Positions 15,853 to 62,080 of a stretch of 64,000 bases of DNA are shown piece by piece. The stretch comes from Eledone cirrhosa (Eukaryota). The notes below the pieces were generated by a model. The model made no database searches and was not told where the DNA came from. It saw only the letters and a list, made by a program, of their open reading frames with translations. Each line of letters opens with the position of its first letter. Position 1 is the stretch's first letter. The stretch covers positions 57,598,001 to 57,662,000 of the forward strand of contig OZ024747.1 of NCBI GenBank assembly GCA_964016885.1, written 5' to 3'. Position numbers and translations under genes: made by a program.

Positions 15853-16398
15853 ATCTACGTTAAAGAAGGATGGAGTCATTATATATACACTAAGATGAGG
15901 CATTCACAGCTGGAATATACCTTTGATCATAGATATGCTCGACGAGGACATACTTGGCGCTAAAGTAAAAAGCAGCAACAATAATATCAGATTGGAGAAA
16001 GTTAATTAAAACTTTAAAACATTTTGCCTCAGTCTCTGTTGGGGAAGTATATACTAGTAGTTATTTAATTATTATCGTACCGGCCAGCAAGGGTGAATAT
16101 CTCATATAATAAATATTAATAATTCAGAAACCTTCATAGTTGTCTTCCTTGCGTCGTCGACCCTACGAATAGATAGACGAATCAGGAACGAAAATAAGTA
16201 CCTGACTGTTGGCGTATACATCTAATGGTAGAAATTCGAATTCCAATAGTAATGACTACGTTAGTCATATTAGTAACGCCTACTACATCTTATTCACAAC
16301 ACATATCAGCATGACTTCGTCCTGAAGATGAAACTAAGAAGGTTGACAATTATTAATAATGGATTTAGAAACATTACAGTGATAAACAAGCTGTAAGA

Positions 16399-17206: not shown

Positions 17207-17689
17207 GATAACAAGTTATCGTTTTAGGCAATCCAGTTAGAGGTTATGAGTACTCTGGACTATGGATAGTTTTAACGTACAGCGTTGTTTGACTCAATAA
17301 GTGGTTTCCTTAGTTAGGTAGCGAGTTTGCGAGAATTCTCATACAGGTTATTCTTGAAATAATAATAGTGAAAGAGTGAAGTATAACATGGTCGGCTGTA
17401 CAAAAGGGTTTTATTTACAGTATTAACAATTGTTTCATTGATCAGGTGAGTCTAAAGGCCGCTGATCACTCGAAATTGCGTCACTCGACCTTAAATACAA
17501 TGTGCGTCTCTGATCAAATCATCGGAATACAATGATTTGATCAGAGACACGCACTTTATTTAAGGTCGAGTGACGCAATTTCGAATGATCAGCGGCCTTT
17601 AGCCTTACCTGATCAATGAAACAATTGTTAATACTGTAAATAAAACCCTTTTGTACAGCCGACCATGTTATTCTTCTCTCTTTCACTTT
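17205..17689 (-). mobile_element. Solo PLE 3' end (fold-back), diverged relative of the 55-58 kb element
   Basis: Hairpin 17368-17687 with about 155-bp arms. Tail 17205-17367 on minus aligns by eye with 57895-58068 (TTGAGTCAAA, CGTTAA, CATAAC, TTGTTA..CC-(TA)n). Confidence 0.8.
17420..17530 (-). ncRNA. Type-I hammerhead ribozyme variant with long stem II
   Basis: GTATT CCGATGA T TTGATCAG [64 nt] CTGATCAA T GAAA C AATT G TT AATAC. All three stems pair. Confidence 0.7.
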
Positions 17690-17763
17690 ATATATATATA
17701 TTTTTTCTTTTTCGAATTAACCAGTGTTAAATAAACATCATCGCCATTAAATATTGATACTAA

Positions 17764-33810: not shown

Positions 33811-33851
<41 letters not shown>

Positions 33852-33890
33852 ATATTAAACAAATGGAAGCTATATTTATAAAACCATATT

Positions 33891-33956
33891 TATTTTATTA
33901 TACATATTTCAGGGATACCATATTAAAAATATGGCATGCCTTCGTCAGATAAAATA
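33891..33956 (-). ncRNA. Type-I hammerhead ribozyme (family D, mirror copy)
   Basis: Reverse-complement copy of 33982-34047, with stem I TATTTTAT/ATAAAATA fully Watson-Crick. Confidence 0.8.
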
Positions 33957-33981
33957 CAATATATAAACTGTTTATATATTG

Positions 33982-34047
33982 TATTTTATCTGACGAAGGC
34001 ATGCCATATTTTTAATATGGTATCCCTGAAATATGTATAATGAAATA
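33982..34047 (+). ncRNA. Type-I hammerhead ribozyme (family D)
   Basis: TATTTTAT CTGACGA AGGCATGCCATATT TTT AATATGGTATCCCT GAAA TATGTA TA ATGAAATA. Confidence 0.85.
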
Positions 34048-34380
34048 AATATGGTTTTATAAATATAGTTTCCATTTGTTTAATATCGTATATCTACTCC
34101 AAAAACTTGTCGAGTGCTTTATATCAGTTATAAAATATTTACTTGTTACAACAATTTTAAATAAAACTTTTGCATATATATATATATGTACTAAGGAGTC
34201 CGGGATCTGACGGCTGAGCTCTTACCGGTTCAAAAGCTAGTTCAAGACTCAAACGGAATCCCTCCTCATTTATATACATATATACATATATATATGCGTG
34301 TGTATGCATGCGCGCGTGTGTGTGTGTGCACGCGTGTGTATGCGTGCGTGTGTGTTTATATATAGTTATACATACATATA

Positions 34381-40118: not shown

Positions 40119-40420
40119 TTTTATTCGTGCATCTTTTTATTATCTAATTCCGTTATACGTATTTCAAAAATGCAAGGGTGGTTATATAATAACCAGCTAT
40201 CATGTTTTCTTCAGATGAATTCAGTAGTCATGTGAGTATTGGGTAGTGATATTAACACCACCTTAAACCAATAACATATCAATCGATAGGCAAACACATC
40301 TCAATTCATCTGAAGAAAACATGCTATGTGGTTATTACAAATAACAGCACTTACATCTTTAAAATACGTATAATGGAATTAGATAGTAAAATGAAGATGT
40401 ATGAATAAAACCGTGTCCCT
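40119..40420. mobile_element. Old fold-back PLE end, family E, with a hammerhead in each arm (40146-40221 minus; 40303-40380 plus, G12 mutated)
   Basis: Minus strand: AATTCAT CTGAAGA AAACATG...CATTTTT GAAA TACGTA TA ACGGAATT. Confidence 0.7.
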
Positions 40421-40425
40421 TATAT

Positions 40426-40490
<65 letters not shown>

Positions 40491-40504
40491 AAAGTTCTAT
40501 TTAA

Positions 40505-40725
40505 AGTTGTTGGGATACAACAAGTAAATATTTTTATAACTGATATAAAGCACTCGACATATTTTTGGAGTAGATATACGATATTAATAAATGGAAACTA
40601 TATTTATAAAACCATATTTATTTCATTATACATATTTCAGGGATACCACATTAAATTATGGTATGCCTTCATCAGACAAAATACAATATATGACAGTTTT
40701 ACAAATAGGTTTGACGTACCCTTTA
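40505..40725 (-). mobile_element. PLE-end family D with hammerhead at 40619-40683
   Basis: TATTTTGT CTGATGA AGGCATACCATAATTTAATGTGGTATCCCT GAAA TATGTA TA ATGAAATA. Confidence 0.8.
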
Positions 40726-40755
40726 AAATACAACCATTACTTTTGGAGGCTGTCT

Positions 40756-47300: not shown

Positions 47301-47635
47301 ATATGACCCTCCCAAAGCATAACAATATATTTATTTGTATATATATATATATATATATACAAATAAATATATTGTTATGCTTTGGGAGGGTCATATTGCC
47401 AGTAAGAAACACACGCACCAATTGCTTTCACTTCAACATGACCCTCCCAAAGCATAACAATATCGGTTTATCCCGCCGAGGTTGACTTTGCCTTTCATCC
47501 TTACGGGGTCGATAAAATAAAGTACCAGTAATGAACTGAGTTATTGCTGGCCTTGTGCCTAAAGTAGAAACAAAAATATCGGTTTAAACACACATTTTCA
47601 AATCTTGCTAAACAAATTCAGAAACCAAATAAATA
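47301..47635. mobile_element. PLE-end family C composite, interrupted by a truncated SINE (47470-47574)
   Basis: GACCCTCCCAAAGCATAACAATAT occurs three times in mixed orientation. SINE flanked by the duplication AATATCGGTTTA. Confidence 0.8.
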
Positions 47636-47674
<39 letters not shown>

Positions 47675-47725
47675 CTGCTCCAACAAGGGTATGTCAATAT
47701 TTATTTATAAAACTGCTCTATATTA

Positions 47726-47790
47726 TATTTTATCTGATGAAAGCACACCATAATTTAACTTGGTGTCCTTGAAATATGTATAATGAAATA
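47726..47790 (+). ncRNA. Type-I hammerhead ribozyme (family D, covariant copy)
   Basis: TATTTTAT CTGATGA AAGCACACCA TAATTTAACT TGGTGTCCTT GAAA TATGTA TA ATGAAATA. Confidence 0.85.
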
Positions 47791-47832
47791 AATATGGTTT
47801 TAGAAATATAGTTTCTATTTGTTTATATATCG

Positions 47833-47867
<35 letters not shown>

Positions 47868-54297: not shown

Positions 54298-54726
54298 CGT
54301 TTCTGAATTTGTTTAGCAAGATTCTTTATCTGAAAATGTGTGTTGAAACCGATATTGTTATACTTTGGGAGGGTCATGTTGCCAATAAGAAACACACGCA
54401 CCAGTTGCTTTCACTTCAATTTATTATAAATTAAATTCATATTAGGAATTTATAAATTTCCGGTTGGTTCCACAACCAGACGATTGTTCATATATTGTCA
54501 AAGTTCTTTCGTCACACATTCTGTGACCTCTTCAGTGACTAGGGATTCTTTTCTTTGTTTTTGTGCCTCTCCTTTGACAATATATGAACAATCGTCTGGT
54601 TGTGGAACCAACCAACCAACCGGAAATTTATAAATTCCTAAATTTATGAATTTAATTTATAATAAATTGAAGTGAAACCAACTGGTGCGTGTGTTTCTTA
54701 TTGGCAACATGACCCTCCCTAAGTAT

Positions 54727-54734
<8 letters not shown>
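54294..54734. mobile_element. PLE-end family C fold-back
   Basis: Long arm on minus 54294-54576, short arm on plus 54572-54734, (TA)n on both sides. Confidence 0.85.
54497..54539 (-). ncRNA. Minimal hammerhead, family C
   Basis: GTCA CTGAAGA G GTCACA GAATG TGTGAC GAAA GAAC TT TGAC. Slightly mutated copy at about 61720-61762. Confidence 0.7.
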
Positions 54735-54792
<58 letters not shown>

Positions 54793-54823
54793 AGATCAAA
54801 AGATGGTTAAAGGAGTTCAATAT

Positions 54824-54892
54824 ATTTTATTATGCGCATTTCAAAAACAAACATCATCAAATAATAATATTTGTGTTTTCATCAGATAAAAC
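54824..54892 (-). ncRNA. Type-I hammerhead, family H, within a (TA)n-flanked insert (54790-54972)
   Basis: GTTTTAT CTGATGA AAACACAAATATTATTATTTGATGATGTTTGTTTTT GAAA TGCGCA TA ATAAAAT. Confidence 0.8.
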
Positions 54893-54970
54893 AGGAGAAC
54901 ATGATATGAAGGCTAAAAAAAACACTTGTTGATAGTGCAGTTTTATTGTACTACAATAAAACTCACCTCC

Positions 54971-55005
<35 letters not shown>

Positions 55006-55432
55006 CAGGAAAGGAGGTTTACATGGTTTGCTATACAAAAAAGTTTTTATTCACATAGCTTACATTTGTTTCACTGAACTGGTCTGTCTAGAGATCGCTA
55101 TCCGCCTAATTTTGCGTCATTCGATCGCCAATACAGAATTATAACCAGTCAGATCTTCGGAGCATGCGAGAATGAAGAAAATACACAGGCAAGAAAAGAA
55201 AAGAAAATATGGAGTAGTTATGGCATTCAATTAGAACAATAACAACAACAATTATTACAACAATGCTATCAATAAACTATTTAAGGAGACCCTGACATTA
55301 CTTAGGTGGGGGGTATATAATGTATCTAATGTTACGGCGTGAAAATCAGCTGTCATAAGGCAAAAAGTATCGTAGTGTGTATCAATTTTAAATTATAAAG
55401 ATAAGCTAGTATTTACAGTCTTTCTCTTCAAT

Positions 55433-55795
55433 AAAATACAAAATAGGGAGACGTGTAACTTCATACAATTTGATATAGACGACTATTATGCATCCATATC
55501 CCCAGCTACCCTAGATAAGGCGCTTATATTTGCCCAAAATAACTCTAATCTTACTCATGATGAAATTGAAATAATAATAGCGGCTAGAAGGACTATCGTA
55601 AAATTTGAAAATATCTACTGGGTAAGAAAGGATAGAATAAATAGCTTCGATATTACAATGGGATCAAATGATTCTGCGCAAATTACAGATATCGTGGGGC
55701 TATTCATAGCACACAACCTACATAAGGAATTCAGTAACCTCCAGGGAGGAATTTATAGGGACGACACGTTACTTATAGCTAGGATAAGAAGGTAA
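55433..55795 (+). pseudogene. PLE reverse transcriptase core fragment (absent from the ORF track)
   Basis: KIQNRETCNFIQFDIDDYYASIS (motif A), FDITMGSNDSAQITDIVG (motif B), GIYRDDTL (motif C). Then a deletion and frameshift near 55785 into DKKVNFLDVTLNL. Confidence 0.9.
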
Positions 55796-55806
55796 ACTTT
55801 CTAGAT

Positions 55807-56997
55807 GTGACTCTAAATCTAAATACTGGATTAATAGAACCTTTCCACAAAAATAATGAAAATCTTGCCTACATTAGTTACAACTCAAATCACCCCAAAT
55901 CCATAATTAAATCCATAGCACGTAGTATATCCCTCCGAATATCCCGCCTATCCTCAAACCTAGAAATCTTTAACGAGCATGCTGACTATTATAATGCAGC
56001 ATTAAGTAGGGCCGGTCATAAAGATAAACTACAGTATATAGTGAATAAGGACAACATAAACAATCCTAGTAATTTCTACTCCAACCGCTCACATAATAAT
56101 AGGAATAGCTTGACTAGACATAGGGTTAGACATGTAACACCTAGAGTAAACGGCCAAAACACTAATAACGTAAACCCAAGAAACAATAGAAGAAACAGAC
56201 AAAGAAAATACCTATGGTTCAACCCAATATTCAACTCCTCTATAAAAACTAGACTGCCCTCTACATTCTTTAAACTAATAGATAAACACTTCCCTATCTC
56301 GCATAGATATCACAAAATACTCAATAGATCTACTATTAAACTCTCTTTCTCAACAGCAGCTAACATAGAATCACACATACGTAAGATCAACCACAGAAAT
56401 ATCTCAAGTAAATCAATTGCACCTATACATAAGCACAAACTCATCACAACATCACAACCACAAGCGCATACAAACGCGCAGCAGCAAAACCCCATGGGGC
56501 ATATATCACAACCCACTTATAACAGGGTACTAAATAGGAATGTAAAAGCTGCACAAAATAGCGCCTCAAACTGCAACTGTCACCTCCCAGATAGGTGCCC
56601 ATTGGCGAACAGATGTCTCGATTCGAGCCTGGTGTACATGTGCACTGTCATCTCGGGTAACTCCACCTGGAATTACATAGGATCCACCGCGGGTTCTTTT
56701 AAGAAAAGATGGTATGTGCACAGGCACTCAATGAAAAATCGAGCACTTATGGGTTCCACCACTCTCGCCAGAAAAATATGGGAATTGAAGGACAGCAACG
56801 CTAGCTACACTATCAACTGGTCGAAGTTGTCGGCTGCTAAAACCTATAGTACAGGGATGTCCTATTGCGGGCTGTGTGATCTTGAGCTATTGTATATCCT
56901 TAGAAATGTTAAAAGGCTACTTAATAATAAGTTAGAAAGATCTATCTTCTGCAGACATAGAATAGCCACTAAATTCATAAGATTCAAACCTCCGTGA
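55807..56997 (+). CDS. C-terminal part of the PLE polyprotein: RT thumb, CxCx5C linker and GIY-YIG endonuclease (GTG is not the native start)
   Basis: SNHP, WFNP, KHFP, CNCHLPDRCPL, LVY..YIG, FKKRW..H, CGLC..E, LLN, CRH. 396 codons without a stop. Confidence 0.85.
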   Translation: MTLNLNTGLIEPFHKNNENLAYISYNSNHPKSIIKSIARSISLRISRLSSNLEIFNEHADYYNAALSRAGHKDKLQYIVNKDNINNPSNFYSNRSHNNRNSLTRHRVRHVTPRVNGQNTNNVNPRNNRRNRQRKYLWFNPIFNSSIKTRLPSTFFKLIDKHFPISHRYHKILNRSTIKLSFSTAANIESHIRKINHRNISSKSIAPIHKHKLITTSQPQAHTNAQQQNPMGHISQPTYNRVLNRNVKAAQNSASNCNCHLPDRCPLANRCLDSSLVYMCTVISGNSTWNYIGSTAGSFKKRWYVHRHSMKNRALMGSTTLARKIWELKDSNASYTINWSKLSAAKTYSTGMSYCGLCDLELLYILRNVKRLLNNKLERSIFCRHRIATKFIRFKPP

Positions 56998-57320
56998 ATC
57001 GAACCAACATAACATAGCTTTAAATTAGGATACCTACTACCCACAGAAATATATTCATTAAGTATACTATTTCCTTCACAAGTCTATACCACACAATTGT
57101 CTGTAAGTACCTCATCTACCAACAATCTTACTCCTTCTCAGCTGCTGCAATCATTTGATCCTAGATCCTAGTTTCTCTCATTTCACTACTACAACTTTAC
57201 CTTCTTTTTGCCATAACTACAATTAGCACGCTTTTCTCTTTGCATGTATGTATATTTTTGTACGAGTGTATATTGATGTGTATGTATGTGTCTATGTACA
57301 CATATATGTGTATATATATT

Positions 57321-57375
<55 letters not shown>

Positions 57376-57732
57376 ATAGATATATGCGTATATTAATTCG
57401 TTAACCTCTGTATTAACTCTACAACTATTGAGCTTTGACAGTGGTCCCACTCATGTATACTGTTGAAGATGAAGAGAAAGACTGTAAATACTAGCTTATC
57501 TTTATAATTTAAAATTGATACACACTACGATACTTTTTGCCTTATGACAGCTGATTTTCACGCCGTAACATTAGATACATTATATACCCCCCACCTAAGT
57601 AATGTCAGGGTCTCCTTAAATAGTTTATTGATAGCATTGTTGTAATAATTGTTGTTGTTATTGTTCTAATTGAATGCCATAACTACTCCATATTTTCTTT
57701 TCTTTTCTTGCCTGTGTATTTTCTTCATTCTC

Positions 57733-57847
57733 GCATGCTCCGAAGATCTGACTGGTTATAATTCTGTATTGGCGATCGAATGACGCAAAATTAGGCGGAT
57801 AGCGATCTCTAGACAGACCAGTTCAGTGAAACAAATGTAAGCTATGT
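57733..57847 (+). ncRNA. Hammerhead variant in the pLTR (mirror copy 55053-55167, minus)
   Basis: GCATGCT CCGAAGA T CTGACTGGT [60 nt] ACCAGTTCAG T GAAA C AAAT G TA AGCTATGT, followed by AATAAA at 57849. Confidence 0.72.
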
Positions 57848-58067
57848 GAATAAAAACTTTTTTGTATAGCAAACCATGTAAACCTTCTTTCCTGATTTAT
57901 TATTACTCCAAGTGTTTACAACATAGGAATTACAGCATACCCGCAGCATCACTATGAAAACGCCTTGTTGAGTCAAACCAAGCCAAGCGTTAATATCATC
58001 CACTACCTGGAATACCATAACTGGACTTCACCTAAGTGGACTGCATTTAACTATTATTTGTTAATCC

Positions 58068-58225: not shown

Positions 58226-58419
58226 AGGAAGTTGTAGTTCACTTGAAGCATTGTGTAATGAGGTATAAACGTTTGTATTTGTAAAGCCAAAACAATGCAG
58301 GTATGGACATAGAATATAAATGCAAATGCAAAAGATATTGTTGACAATTAGTCTTTTACCTTAAATTTATTTAAATGTCCTTAATTTTCGAGATAATATC
58401 TCTTCTTCGGATATTATCA

Positions 58420-58990
58420 GAATTGACAGGATCCCTCACCCGAGATGAATTAGACCTCCTCAGCCTGGGTCCCAAGCTCATATTGAAACAGTGACTGGAC
58501 GACAAATTATGGCTCGACATAGAAACGAATTTCTGTCGGGCTGCCTACCAACTAAAATGGATATCGACTCCTCGGCAACAACACCACGGAATCTAACAAA
58601 CCCAGATTCCCGATATACCAACTAGATCGCCCACTCTGTCCACCGCCTGCCAACCGCGAGCTTGAAGAAAAACTCTCGAGTCTAAAACATTCCGTATTTA
58701 ACATCTTACGGAAACAGAAGAAGATAGCCCCAAACCTCTCCAGGACACAACAACTCGCCCTGAAGAACCTACGGAAGAGGGAACTTATATACTTACCATC
58801 CGACAAAGGTAAAGAGTTTTGCGTCATCTCTCAAGCCACACACAACAACCTAGCCTTTGAACACCTAAGCGACAGTGAACTATATACAGAGATCCCAGAC
58901 ATGACTGCAGCCCAGATCGAAAAACAGACCAACTCCATCTGGTTCGACATCTGTAGGAGAAGACAACTCCCAAATAAAGTTAAACTCATA
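58420..58990 (+). pseudogene. Second PLE family: N-terminal pre-RT ORF fragment
   Basis: LTRDELDLLSLGPK...IETNFCRAAYQLKW, then a stop/frameshift, then NLSRTQQLALKNLRKRELIYLPSDKGKEFCVI...HLSDSELY (PLE DKG motif). Confidence 0.8.
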
Positions 58991-61328
58991 ATACCCTCAC
59001 TTTTTTACTTGGAAAAGTTACAACTATGGTGTTATTTGGTGCTGTTTGGTCCAGCTGTTTGGCGGAAAGTTTGTTACCTACATACGACCGTCAGCTTTAT
59101 AGTATATATACATATATATATTTGTGTATATATACATATTTATATATGTATATATTTGTTTATATATACATATATTATTTATATATGTTTATATATGTAA
59201 TATATATATATGTGTGTTTGTGAATTGGTGGAAAAATATTTAACTTGTGGAATTTAAGAGTCGATTAGGCTCTGTGTTTATATTTTCAATATTGCTCCAC
59301 ACAATCAATATATATATTATTTGCCAGCCATTATATTTACCGAGATACTGTTCGTGTTATTGGCCTTATTGTATTACCTGTATGAAATATACCTGAATAT
59401 AATTCATTTCTTGTACGTTGTTTATTTCAGGAAAATATCCCGTGATAAATTATTTTAGCAGAAACTCTTTCAAAGCTTCTTATATATTTTTCGAAATACC
59501 ATATTGATGGAAATGAACAACATATACTTACTATACTGCATAATAAATGACAGATTATGAACGAAAGAAATATAAGAATATATACTGTAAAATTGAAAAC
59601 ATTTCTCTATTTCTGTTGTAATTCAATATGAAATAATTTTGTAATCATTTTGGAAGGCGCTATACTTCTAGCGTTTGTTTAATATTTTTGCTAATATAAA
59701 TTTCTTATAGAAAGCATTATTCGTTGTCACGCATGCAATTTTATATGAAATAAATAGTAAAATTTCATATTACTAGAGTATATATCGTAGAGGTCTTGTA
59801 CAGTCCACTACAAAAATAAGAAGCAATAGTGTGATCTTGACACGCTTTTCCGTTCACAATGAGAGTCTATATGTAAAAGGATAACCTTCACGACTGTCTA
59901 ATATATCTGATAAATTTTAATTAGCACATACAAATAGCGATGGAGAAAATATAGTGCCACCATCAATTATAGTATATCAAAAATTTTGCTGGTCCGTCAA
60001 GAATTTATCTAATAGAAGTAACTACCACGAATACCCCAAATATTCAAATAAGAATCCTTTCATTATTGTATATTTGATAATTTTTTTAAATGTTCGAGAA
60101 TGATGATTCACTTAATTATATAACTTAACTAATTTGCCTCTTTATTAACCTGTTGTGTGGAACATAACGTAACACAGGTTGTGATAGTAAGATTTGAAAA
60201 GAATATAAACATTTAAAAATAAACGGTTTTACATCATAATACCTGGTTCGTTACTAATCACTTTGGCATTAAACGGGTTAAATAGATTTCAGAGCGATTA
60301 ATTAAGATTTGGTTAAGCTGTTGCTGCAGAAACGTAACGATGCTTGAAAACATATTCCAGCTATTACAATATTTCTGTTCTTAGTGAAATTGTATAAACA
60401 AACAAACCACAGCTTTTACAAATCAAAGTGTATCTCAGACTTATTAAAAATTTTCTTACATTTAGGGACGGCTAAAATCTACAAATTTCTTCTATTGTAT
60501 ACTATAACATCAAAGACTGCTTATCAATGAGTCTTACGGTGACAGTAATATACTTATCACCTTAGGGTGAACAAGAGTGAGGGATGCAGAAAGTGTACTC
60601 CATGATGTAAATAAAAATTTCAATGATAAAAAATGAGAGTTAAGTTAGTGTTAGCATATTTCAGTTAGCCATTGTAACTTGTGAACATATATTCTTTACT
60701 ATTCCCTAATTTAATGTAAAAGCTGCTCGAAAACTGGCATTCCTAAACCTTGTTTGAATTTGCATAATTTAAGTGTGTTAAATGTAATCTCAAATGTAAA
60801 CATATATATACTTATATTGATATCACTAGCTCTTTAACTTTATATGTTCCTATAAATCTCAATATATTTCTGGAGATCATAACTACTTTTTAATGTTCAC
60901 ACATATCTTGTACAGAATAAGAATATTTAAATATGAATGAAACATGTATAGTTGAAATATCAACCACATATCATTTCCTAAACAAACAATAATCAACAGG
61001 GAATCTCAACAACGCTGTTGTCATTCTCTTAAATAATCAGGAAGTGAATACCATATAATGCATGATATGTCGTATGGGATTTCTCTCTATGTAAATATAT
61101 AAAGTGAAATCACCGGATATATATAGTGAAAGCAAATACAATACTATAATAAATATTGCATTATGGATATTTTACCTTTCTTTACCGAGACAATTCGTTC
61201 TTCTATCACGAGAATCTTCTCTATCTATTATATACAAAGCTTAGATAGACTCAATGGCGGTATGTTAATTCAATTCGCCGTCTACAATGTGACTTACTTC
61301 GTATTGCTTGAAATATGGGATTACTTAC

Positions 61329-61505: not shown

Positions 61506-62080
61506 TATTTCGTTTCTGAATTTGTTTAGAACGATTCTTTATCTGAAAACGTGTGTTGAAACCGATATTGTTATGCTTTGGGAGGGTCATGTTGCCAATA
61601 AGAAACACACGCACCAGTTGTTTCACTTCAATTTATTATAAATTAAATTTATAAATTTGGGAATTTATAAATTTCCGGTTGGTTGGTTGGTTGCACAACC
61701 AGACGATTGTTCATATATTGTCAAAGTTCTTTTCTCACACATTCTGTGACCTCTTCAGTGACTGGGGATTCTTTTCTTTGCTTTTGTGCCTCTCCTTTGT
61801 TCTGTCCTACGCCATCTTGTTTTTGTTGTGTGCTTAGTTTGCGCATGTGTTACATCCGGGTGTCTGTGTGTGTTTATATTTGTTTATTTATTTGTTTATT
61901 TACATGTTACTGGTTGGTTGTTTGTTCTATGTGTGTGTGTGTTTTCATTTTGTCCTTAATTGTAAGTTGTGATGTTGCTATTCCATTCATGTTTTCTATT
62001 TAATTTTGGTTGGAGTTCATTTATGTTTATTGCCTCTGTGATTTGTGTTTCTTATTGGCAACATGACCCTCCAAAAGCAT

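Follow-up and report, generated by a model that had tools for sequence, protein, structure and literature searches.

The hammerhead ribozymes associated with Penelope-like elements (PLEs) are very common in animals, lack the peripheral contacts of the fast hammerheads, and are slow or dependent on protein (PMC4209133, PMC8557442, PMC11167929). As described for the pseudo-LTRs of these elements (PMC4209133), they have a type I topology with a long helix II and a palindromic helix III suited to dimers, lie between U-rich 5' and AU-rich 3' flanks, and are found mostly solo or as pairs on opposite strands. Within the same set, the motif from Drosophila willistoni combines a 6-nt palindrome with an AUA site, and that from Marsupenaeus japonicus has an A10.1-U11.1 pair without an extra base, whereas the min-HHR consensus (Cervera and de la Pena 2014, PMC4209133) places an extra base after A9 and follows it with G10.1-C11.1. 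The hammerheads of Hydra-clade PLEs, including Hydra-1_Obim of Octopus (Craig et al. 2021, PMC8557442), sit at the 3' end of elements that target (TA)n, commonly have cleavage triplets ending in A, and are accompanied by inverted truncated copies and tails. A diminished stem III, an association with PLEs, and cleavage as dimers are also reported for the variants of Lunse, Weinberg and Breaker 2017 (via PMC6765202). The hammerheads of non-LTR retrozymes (PMC7229834) are likewise of type I, and their amphibian versions have a weak palindromic helix III and are dimer dependent.

Here we describe three hammerhead families, D, E, and H, in a 64-kb stretch of DNA from Eledone cirrhosa (hereafter the window), which share these features of the pseudo-LTR motifs (most closely that of D. 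willistoni), the Hydra-clade motifs, and the Lunse motifs, dimer cleavage being in our case predicted and the association with PLEs probable, and which share with the retrozyme hammerheads their type I topology. Given their sequence, they are very probably dimeric type I hammerheads of the PLE type that depart from the min-HHR consensus where helix II begins, all seven copies lacking both the extra base and G10.1-C11.1, and that add a conserved C.Y mismatch at the fourth pair of helix II. Palindromic stem III, dimer cleavage, the AUA triplet, and A10.1-U11.1 are already in print for PLE hammerheads in the sources cited above; the mismatch is what sets the three families apart. Read by eye, none of the 56 motifs of Fig. 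S3 in PMC4209133 has C.C or C.U at pair 4, and two have another mismatch there; stem I is also shorter in those motifs than the 8 bp of families D and H. Unlike the present families, the Hydra-clade hammerheads mostly have a fully paired helix II whose foot carries U.U or an extra base, and their stem-III segment measures 7-8 nt as opposed to 6 nt; the C.Y design is absent from all 34 rows of File S2 in PMC8557442. The axolotl HHR_Amex2 offers a family-wide U.U mismatch, located at the base of helix II, and the 4-bp helix II, loop 1-loop 2 contacts, and head-to-tail arrays of 150-450-bp units typical of non-LTR retrozymes (PMC7229834) are absent here. In the parts of the literature that we consulted, including 10.64898/2026.07.22.740005 and PMC10085705, we found no conserved C.Y in the helix II of a PLE hammerhead and no cephalopod case; Lunse 2017 and Arkhipova 2017 (Terminon) may hold one. 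The idea that our motif is the missing Naiad hammerhead found no support, as three 13-nt motifs taken from D, E, and H are absent from the supplement of PMC8557442 (in which line breaks can hide a match) and the 3' ends of Naiad_Obim and Naiad_Ovul show, by eye, another arrangement. In these 3' ends (PMC8557442 supplement) the core boxes are permuted, with the second box first and possible helices around them; judging from these letters, what the authors listed as only half a core may be a hammerhead resembling type II/III.

The window is AT-rich, microsatellite-dense animal DNA with many short repeats, among which we recovered seven hammerhead copies at five loci. Copy D4 spans 47726-47790 on the plus strand and consists of a stem I 5' arm (47726-47733), the core (47734-47740, with C3 at 47734), stem II (47741-47770, with C10.4 at 47744 and C11.4 at 47767), the second core box (47771-47774), the stem-III segment (47775-47780), a predicted cleavage site after 47782, and the stem I 3' arm (47783-47790). 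Family D further includes D2 (33982-34047, plus strand; C3 at 33990, C10.4 at 34000, C11.4 at 34024), its inverted partner D1 (33891-33956, minus strand; C3 at 33948, C10.4 at 33938, C11.4 at 33914), and D3 (40619-40683, minus strand; C3 at 40675, C10.4 at 40665, C11.4 at 40642). Family E comprises E1 (40146-40222, minus strand; C3 at 40214, C10.4 at 40204, U11.4 at 40169) and its inverted partner E2 (40302-40380, plus strand; C3 at 40310, C10.4 at 40320, C11.4 at 40357), and family H a single copy (54823-54893, minus strand; C3 at 54885, C10.4 at 54875, U11.4 at 54846). D1 and D2 form a single inverted insertion and are 96% identical, and E1 and E2 form an inverted pair with 72% identity; hence, the seven copies amount to five loci in three families and not to seven independent samples. 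A covariance model built from the seven copies found no eighth in the window: among the 14 matches listed, the seven known copies scored 81-106 bits and the other seven at most 18.5 bits. A strict descriptor recovered five of the seven (E1 and E2 fail) and gave no match in any of 300 windows simulated with the local dinucleotide composition preserved, indicating that the copies are not due to chance. Rfam hammerhead models had no match at gathering score in the window, and no hammerhead family appeared among the 150 listed of 202 weak Rfam matches between 33800 and 58500. PLE hammerhead variants are poorly covered by the Rfam models, so this blank says little.

As judged from sequence, all copies of D, E, and H have the type I hammerhead fold, in which stem III is short and self-complementary and the cleavage site is AUA. 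The core boxes and the U16.1-H17 site are intact in six of the seven; the exception is E2, which is probably dead after the loss of G12 at 40361. In every copy, A10.1-U11.1 directly follows A9 and is succeeded by three pairs, the C.Y mismatch, and an A-U at pair 5, beyond which stem II continues for 2 to 7 or more pairs, and every copy has the 6-nt stem-III segment and the AUA triplet; the original observation of a mismatch and a design common to the three families is thereby borne out in 7/7 copies, and its coordinates and letters (e.g., D2 33997-34027 set against D4 47741-47770) were correct. The mismatch is C.C in five copies (D1-D4 and E2) and C.U in two (E1 and H), and it forms a 1x1 interruption within an otherwise compensated helix. 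In the alignment of the seven copies, all 42 cells of pairs 1-3 and 5-7 in stem II are paired, as against 0/7 for pair 4, and two-sided changes are seen at four of the six pairs neighboring it. Counting pair 4 as a pair, 91% of 112 cells are paired in the proposed register versus 33-54% in slid registers. None of 500 shuffles reached the observed percentage paired or the covariation score, and 21 of 500 reached the observed number of pairs with a two-sided change, in a control that is inflated by the relatedness of the copies and whose structure was drawn from the same seven sequences. The hammerhead identity and the covariation of stem II are, on these grounds, supported. In the particular comparison from D2 to D4 that had been put forward as compensatory, pair 2 (G-C to A-U) and pair 6 (U-A to C-G) do change on both sides, while the change at pair 7 (G.U to A-U) is one-sided and so compatible with pairing, not compensatory. 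Similarly, the statement that only N7 varies in the core holds for family D and fails for E2, in which G12 has become A. Stem I reaches 8 bp (in D and H) and stem II 9-12 bp; all changes in the 12 variable stem columns are transitions. Beyond the mere absence of pairing, the bases C10.4, A10.5, and U11.5 are themselves conserved, and in stem I A1.5, A1.6, and U1.7 are identical in 7/7 copies.

The stem-III segment had been described as self-complementary throughout, which applies to E and H as such and to family D only if two G.U pairs are counted. Its self-complementary center is present in all seven copies, being UG in the D copies of the window and CG in E and H, and UA in contigs of a sequencing run (X1) discussed below. 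In the monomer, stem III is computed to have 2 bp and to cost +2.9 kcal/mol in context, and the duplex of 6-8 bp between two copies is computed at -2.2 (D), -6.5 (E), and -10.5 (H) kcal/mol. A center that is always complementary would not be needed in a monomer loop and thus supports the dimer; cleavage as a dimer through the self-complementary stem III is, on this modeling, our likely prediction. The proposal of a dimer made originally is in this way supported by both centers and energies, for a design already published (PMC4209133, PMC6765202). The inverted pairs of the window lie on opposite strands and thus afford no dimer in cis: the window copies are truncated relics, and each inverted pair would be expected to form a long hairpin instead of an active dimer.

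The copies are found as relics of 150-350 bp inside (TA)n. D1 and D2 belong to one unit at 33842-34190 within (TA)n, in which an inverted short copy (33842-33964) stands head to head with a longer-tailed copy (33965-34190) whose tail is about 95 nt longer at the 3' end. The same two 3' termini, about 95 nt apart, recur elsewhere in the family: D4 lies in a remnant (47685-47840, plus strand) that ends at the short one, D3 in a remnant (40488-40752, minus strand) with the long 3' tail, and both remnants have (TA)n on both flanks. Copy H sits in a remnant of about 190 bp between two (TA)n runs. Upstream of the core, every copy is truncated within about 20-90 nt, with no ORF attached. Inverted 5'-truncated copies, an optional tail, and a preference for (TA)n are traits of PLEs (PMC8557442), in which the optional tail is 30-40 bp and hence shorter than that of family D; such tails have been explained by two start sites of reverse transcription (PMC11167929). 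It is this insertion anatomy, there being no ORF attached to the copies, that makes a PLE origin of the D, E, and H hammerheads highly probable, and their sequences suggest that they are most likely 3' pseudo-LTR remnants or nonautonomous PLE derivatives. We saw no head-to-tail tandem array of the non-LTR retrozyme kind, the copies being solo or inverted; none of the 150 listed of 171 tandem-repeat rows covers them. Pfam returned no family for six candidate ORFs. An 11-nt word common to the tails of D and E is a chance match (p 0.72). The tolerance of G.U pairs on the hammerhead strand implies that what is kept is the RNA of that strand and not a DNA hairpin.

The neighborhood of copy H contains a broken PLE (55000-57900, plus strand) with an RT fragment (55376-55795) and an ORF with thumb and GIY-YIG-type regions (55783-56997), bounded by inverted terminal repeats (55000-55400 and 57500-57900) that are 99.75% identical over 401 bp. 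By eye, the ORF region 55376-56997 is similar to Hydra-1_Obim from Octopus bimaculoides (PMC8557442 supplement); it falls into HTH_animal/GIY-YIG clusters at 0.95-0.96 (ESM Atlas) and matches no Pfam family. Copy H as a part of this element is rejected, as (TA)n separates them and the PLE has its own, different hammerhead: its terminal repeats carry, with C3 at -55160 and +57740, a design of the Hydra-clade kind described above, in which C replaces U4, U.U stands at the base of stem II, and stem II has a branched-looking insert of about 80 nt. Several unrelated hammerhead designs in fact occur within this one 64-kb window. A relative of the broken-PLE hammerhead with a long stem II lies in 17386-17701 (C3 at -17525); it too has C at position 4, the first 8 bp of its stem II are fully paired, and a second copy lies inverted nearby. 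An inverted-pair repeat family (54352-54734 and 61513-61799) carries a typical min-HHR (C3 at -54535), with the extra base after A9 and G10.1-C11.1. The start of a further PLE-like ORF is visible at 58350-59000, with a DKG motif at about 58800 (by eye), preceded near 58410 on the minus strand by a small hairpin that by eye looks like a minimal hammerhead whose position 4 is C, and hammerhead-like cores with weaker helices occur at 16322, 53519, and 54049. Apart from hammerheads, the window has a very abundant repeat of about 110 bp, at 47470-47579 and around 15 other places, which is presumably the 3' part of an octopus SINE.

Beyond the window, contigs from four runs were aligned on D3 (5915, 78, 2, and 17; total 6,012, two of the runs thus giving only 2 and 17). 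No RNA run is listed among those containing the sequence. Family D, as represented by 40492-40752, is extremely abundant in run X1 and is present too in runs labeled as three other organisms. Neither C10.4 nor C11.4 has a listed variant in any of the four runs. In X1, pairing-preserving variants are listed at 10.2/11.2 (9%/33%), 10.6/11.6 (3%/23%), and 1.3 (36%), the center of the palindrome changes from G to A in 45% of the depth, which makes the palindrome perfect, and the core has no variant at ≥2%. In the flanks, 10 of 124 sites vary at ≥2%, so two given sites would be invariant by chance about 85% of the time, and the invariance within family D is accordingly weak evidence. The pile-up is also weighted by depth and biased to near-identical contigs (3912/5915 at ≥95%), and it failed to list three variants present in D1/D2 (N7, 10.7, and 2.2). 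A change of 11.8 from G to A makes up 23% of the depth in X1 and 62% in X5, and no change of its partner is listed; it marks a D sublineage with an apparent C.A at pair 8, for which a partner change was possibly missed. Contig ends run loose into (TA)n at 40574 and 40581 (61 and 77 contigs), and coverage drops steeply some 20-30 nt upstream of the core, pointing to a short nonautonomous element or very frequent 5' truncation.

We also looked for the design in other DNA. With a loose pattern in viral contigs, 120 of an estimated ~2600 loci were covered and none of the 110 matches scored had all three helices; with a tighter pattern, 113 matches were scored at 5 viral and 108 metagenomic loci, of which two had a stem I of at least 4 bp and neither of these a sound stem II. 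The best match is a chance one that precedes a methyltransferase-like prokaryotic gene. Such collections hold little animal DNA, and their blank says nothing on the range of the design. The 2017 survey of Lunse and colleagues reportedly comprised about 150,000 hammerheads and may include the C.Y design.

Is the mismatch selected, as originally proposed? Between families, alignments of the flanks and the distal stem II score no higher than those of shuffled sequence (lowest p 0.057 in 18 comparisons); by contrast, the D3 and D4 flanks align at z 7.6-11. With unalignable flanks and four neighboring pairs replaced on both sides, the mismatch has outlived its surroundings. Pair 4 could be closed by a single transversion without a harmful intermediate, and a single transition would suffice to make C10.4 a U; neither change is found. 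From these patterns, selection on the C.Y mismatch at pair 4 appears probable: it has been kept across three families, yet these are only three, their stem changes are transitions only, and the within-family sample is of low power. On the same facts, one ancestor's C.C might simply have been tolerated in a long stem and inherited, as closing it requires a rare transversion. That all stem changes are transitions implies stems far from transversion saturation, which makes an unrepaired inherited mismatch possible, and the sole change seen at pair 4 is from C.C to C.U. Successful copies may carry another stem II mismatch, as the abundant D sublineage with its apparent C.A at pair 8 indicates, and the two exceptions among the 56 published PLE-type motifs (U.U and C.A, read by eye) show a tolerated mismatch at pair 4 itself. 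Against such an accident, many transversions and indels are needed to erase the similarity between families in flanks and distal stem II, and without selection C10.4 would be expected to have become U, the commonest change, in at least one lineage, whereas it is C in 7/7 copies with no variant listed in four runs; we regard this explanation as unlikely, if by no means negligible.

The best explanation, which we hold tentatively, is that these are dimer hammerheads, likely from the 3' pseudo-LTRs of three related PLE families, in which C.C/C.U is probably selected as a packing point between helix II and helix I. In the canonical type I hammerhead, helix II ends after 4 bp and loop 2 contacts U1.7 of stem I (PMC11875169). 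In D, E, and H both helices run past the height of that loop, leaving no loop available there, and the C.Y is the sole irregularity at this level; a pyrimidine-pyrimidine pair would narrow or kink helix II at pair 4, where it adjoins the invariant A-U and would face the invariant A1.5-A1.6-U1.7, and would let helices I and II dock. The canonical contact could not be copied as such, as its adenine lies on the 3' side of loop 2, on the other strand from that of A10.5, position 11.5 being U here, and U1.7 is paired. Invariance of A and U in an AU-rich stem is weak evidence for docking, and C.U in E1 or H may reflect decay after insertion. Alternatively, the mismatch and the adjoining A-U could be a feature recognized by the RT-endonuclease of the element, which would fold or license the ribozyme. 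The hammerhead of the Anolis Poseidon element cuts only with the protein of the element added (PMC11167929), PLE hammerheads are slow in vitro (PMC4209133), and a protein could account for base identity being kept at C10.4, A10.5, and U11.5. However, the protein-binding region in Anolis lies within the first 172 nt of the ORF and not at a stem II mismatch (PMC11167929), and D, E, and H have no known cognate protein, so that we consider such recognition improbable. Slightly more improbable is that any break at pair 4 would do, by weakening the 3 bp proximal to the core (with A10.1-U11.1) and keeping the ribozyme slow until a dimer or protein forms, thereby sparing the RNA template. The minimum-energy folds of D2, D3, D4, and H do mispair the core while keeping stems I and II, and uncleaved RNA is the main insertion substrate of the Anolis element (PMC11167929); yet an indifferent break should not be confined to C.C and C.U, with never U.C, U.U, or a purine mismatch. 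What the copies offer for the dedicated metal site suggested originally is the conservation of the mismatch and nothing more specific. The outer metal site of hammerheads is at A9/10.1, three pairs away from the mismatch, and C.C and C.U present different ligand faces, which makes a metal site at pair 4 very improbable. A role of C10.4 as the -1 base of a start-codon context, suggested by the Anolis element, whose ORF starts at stem II, was rejected: ATG occurs in only 4/7 copies, and pair 6 covaries through it.

Carried further, the packing of helix I against helix II raises the rather speculative possibility of a third docking mode, with neither a loop-loop contact nor a pseudoknot, in which helix I, of either the same molecule or its dimer partner, docks onto the C.Y in a continuous helix II; D, E, and H would then constitute a distinct and very abundant class of cephalopod PLE ribozymes, possibly fast-cutting in the absence of protein. 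Should the mismatch be neutral, they would be one more family of PLE hammerheads, in a lineage with few described. A conserved non-pair with natural variants on either side provides a cheap point-mutation test for a hidden tertiary or protein contact.
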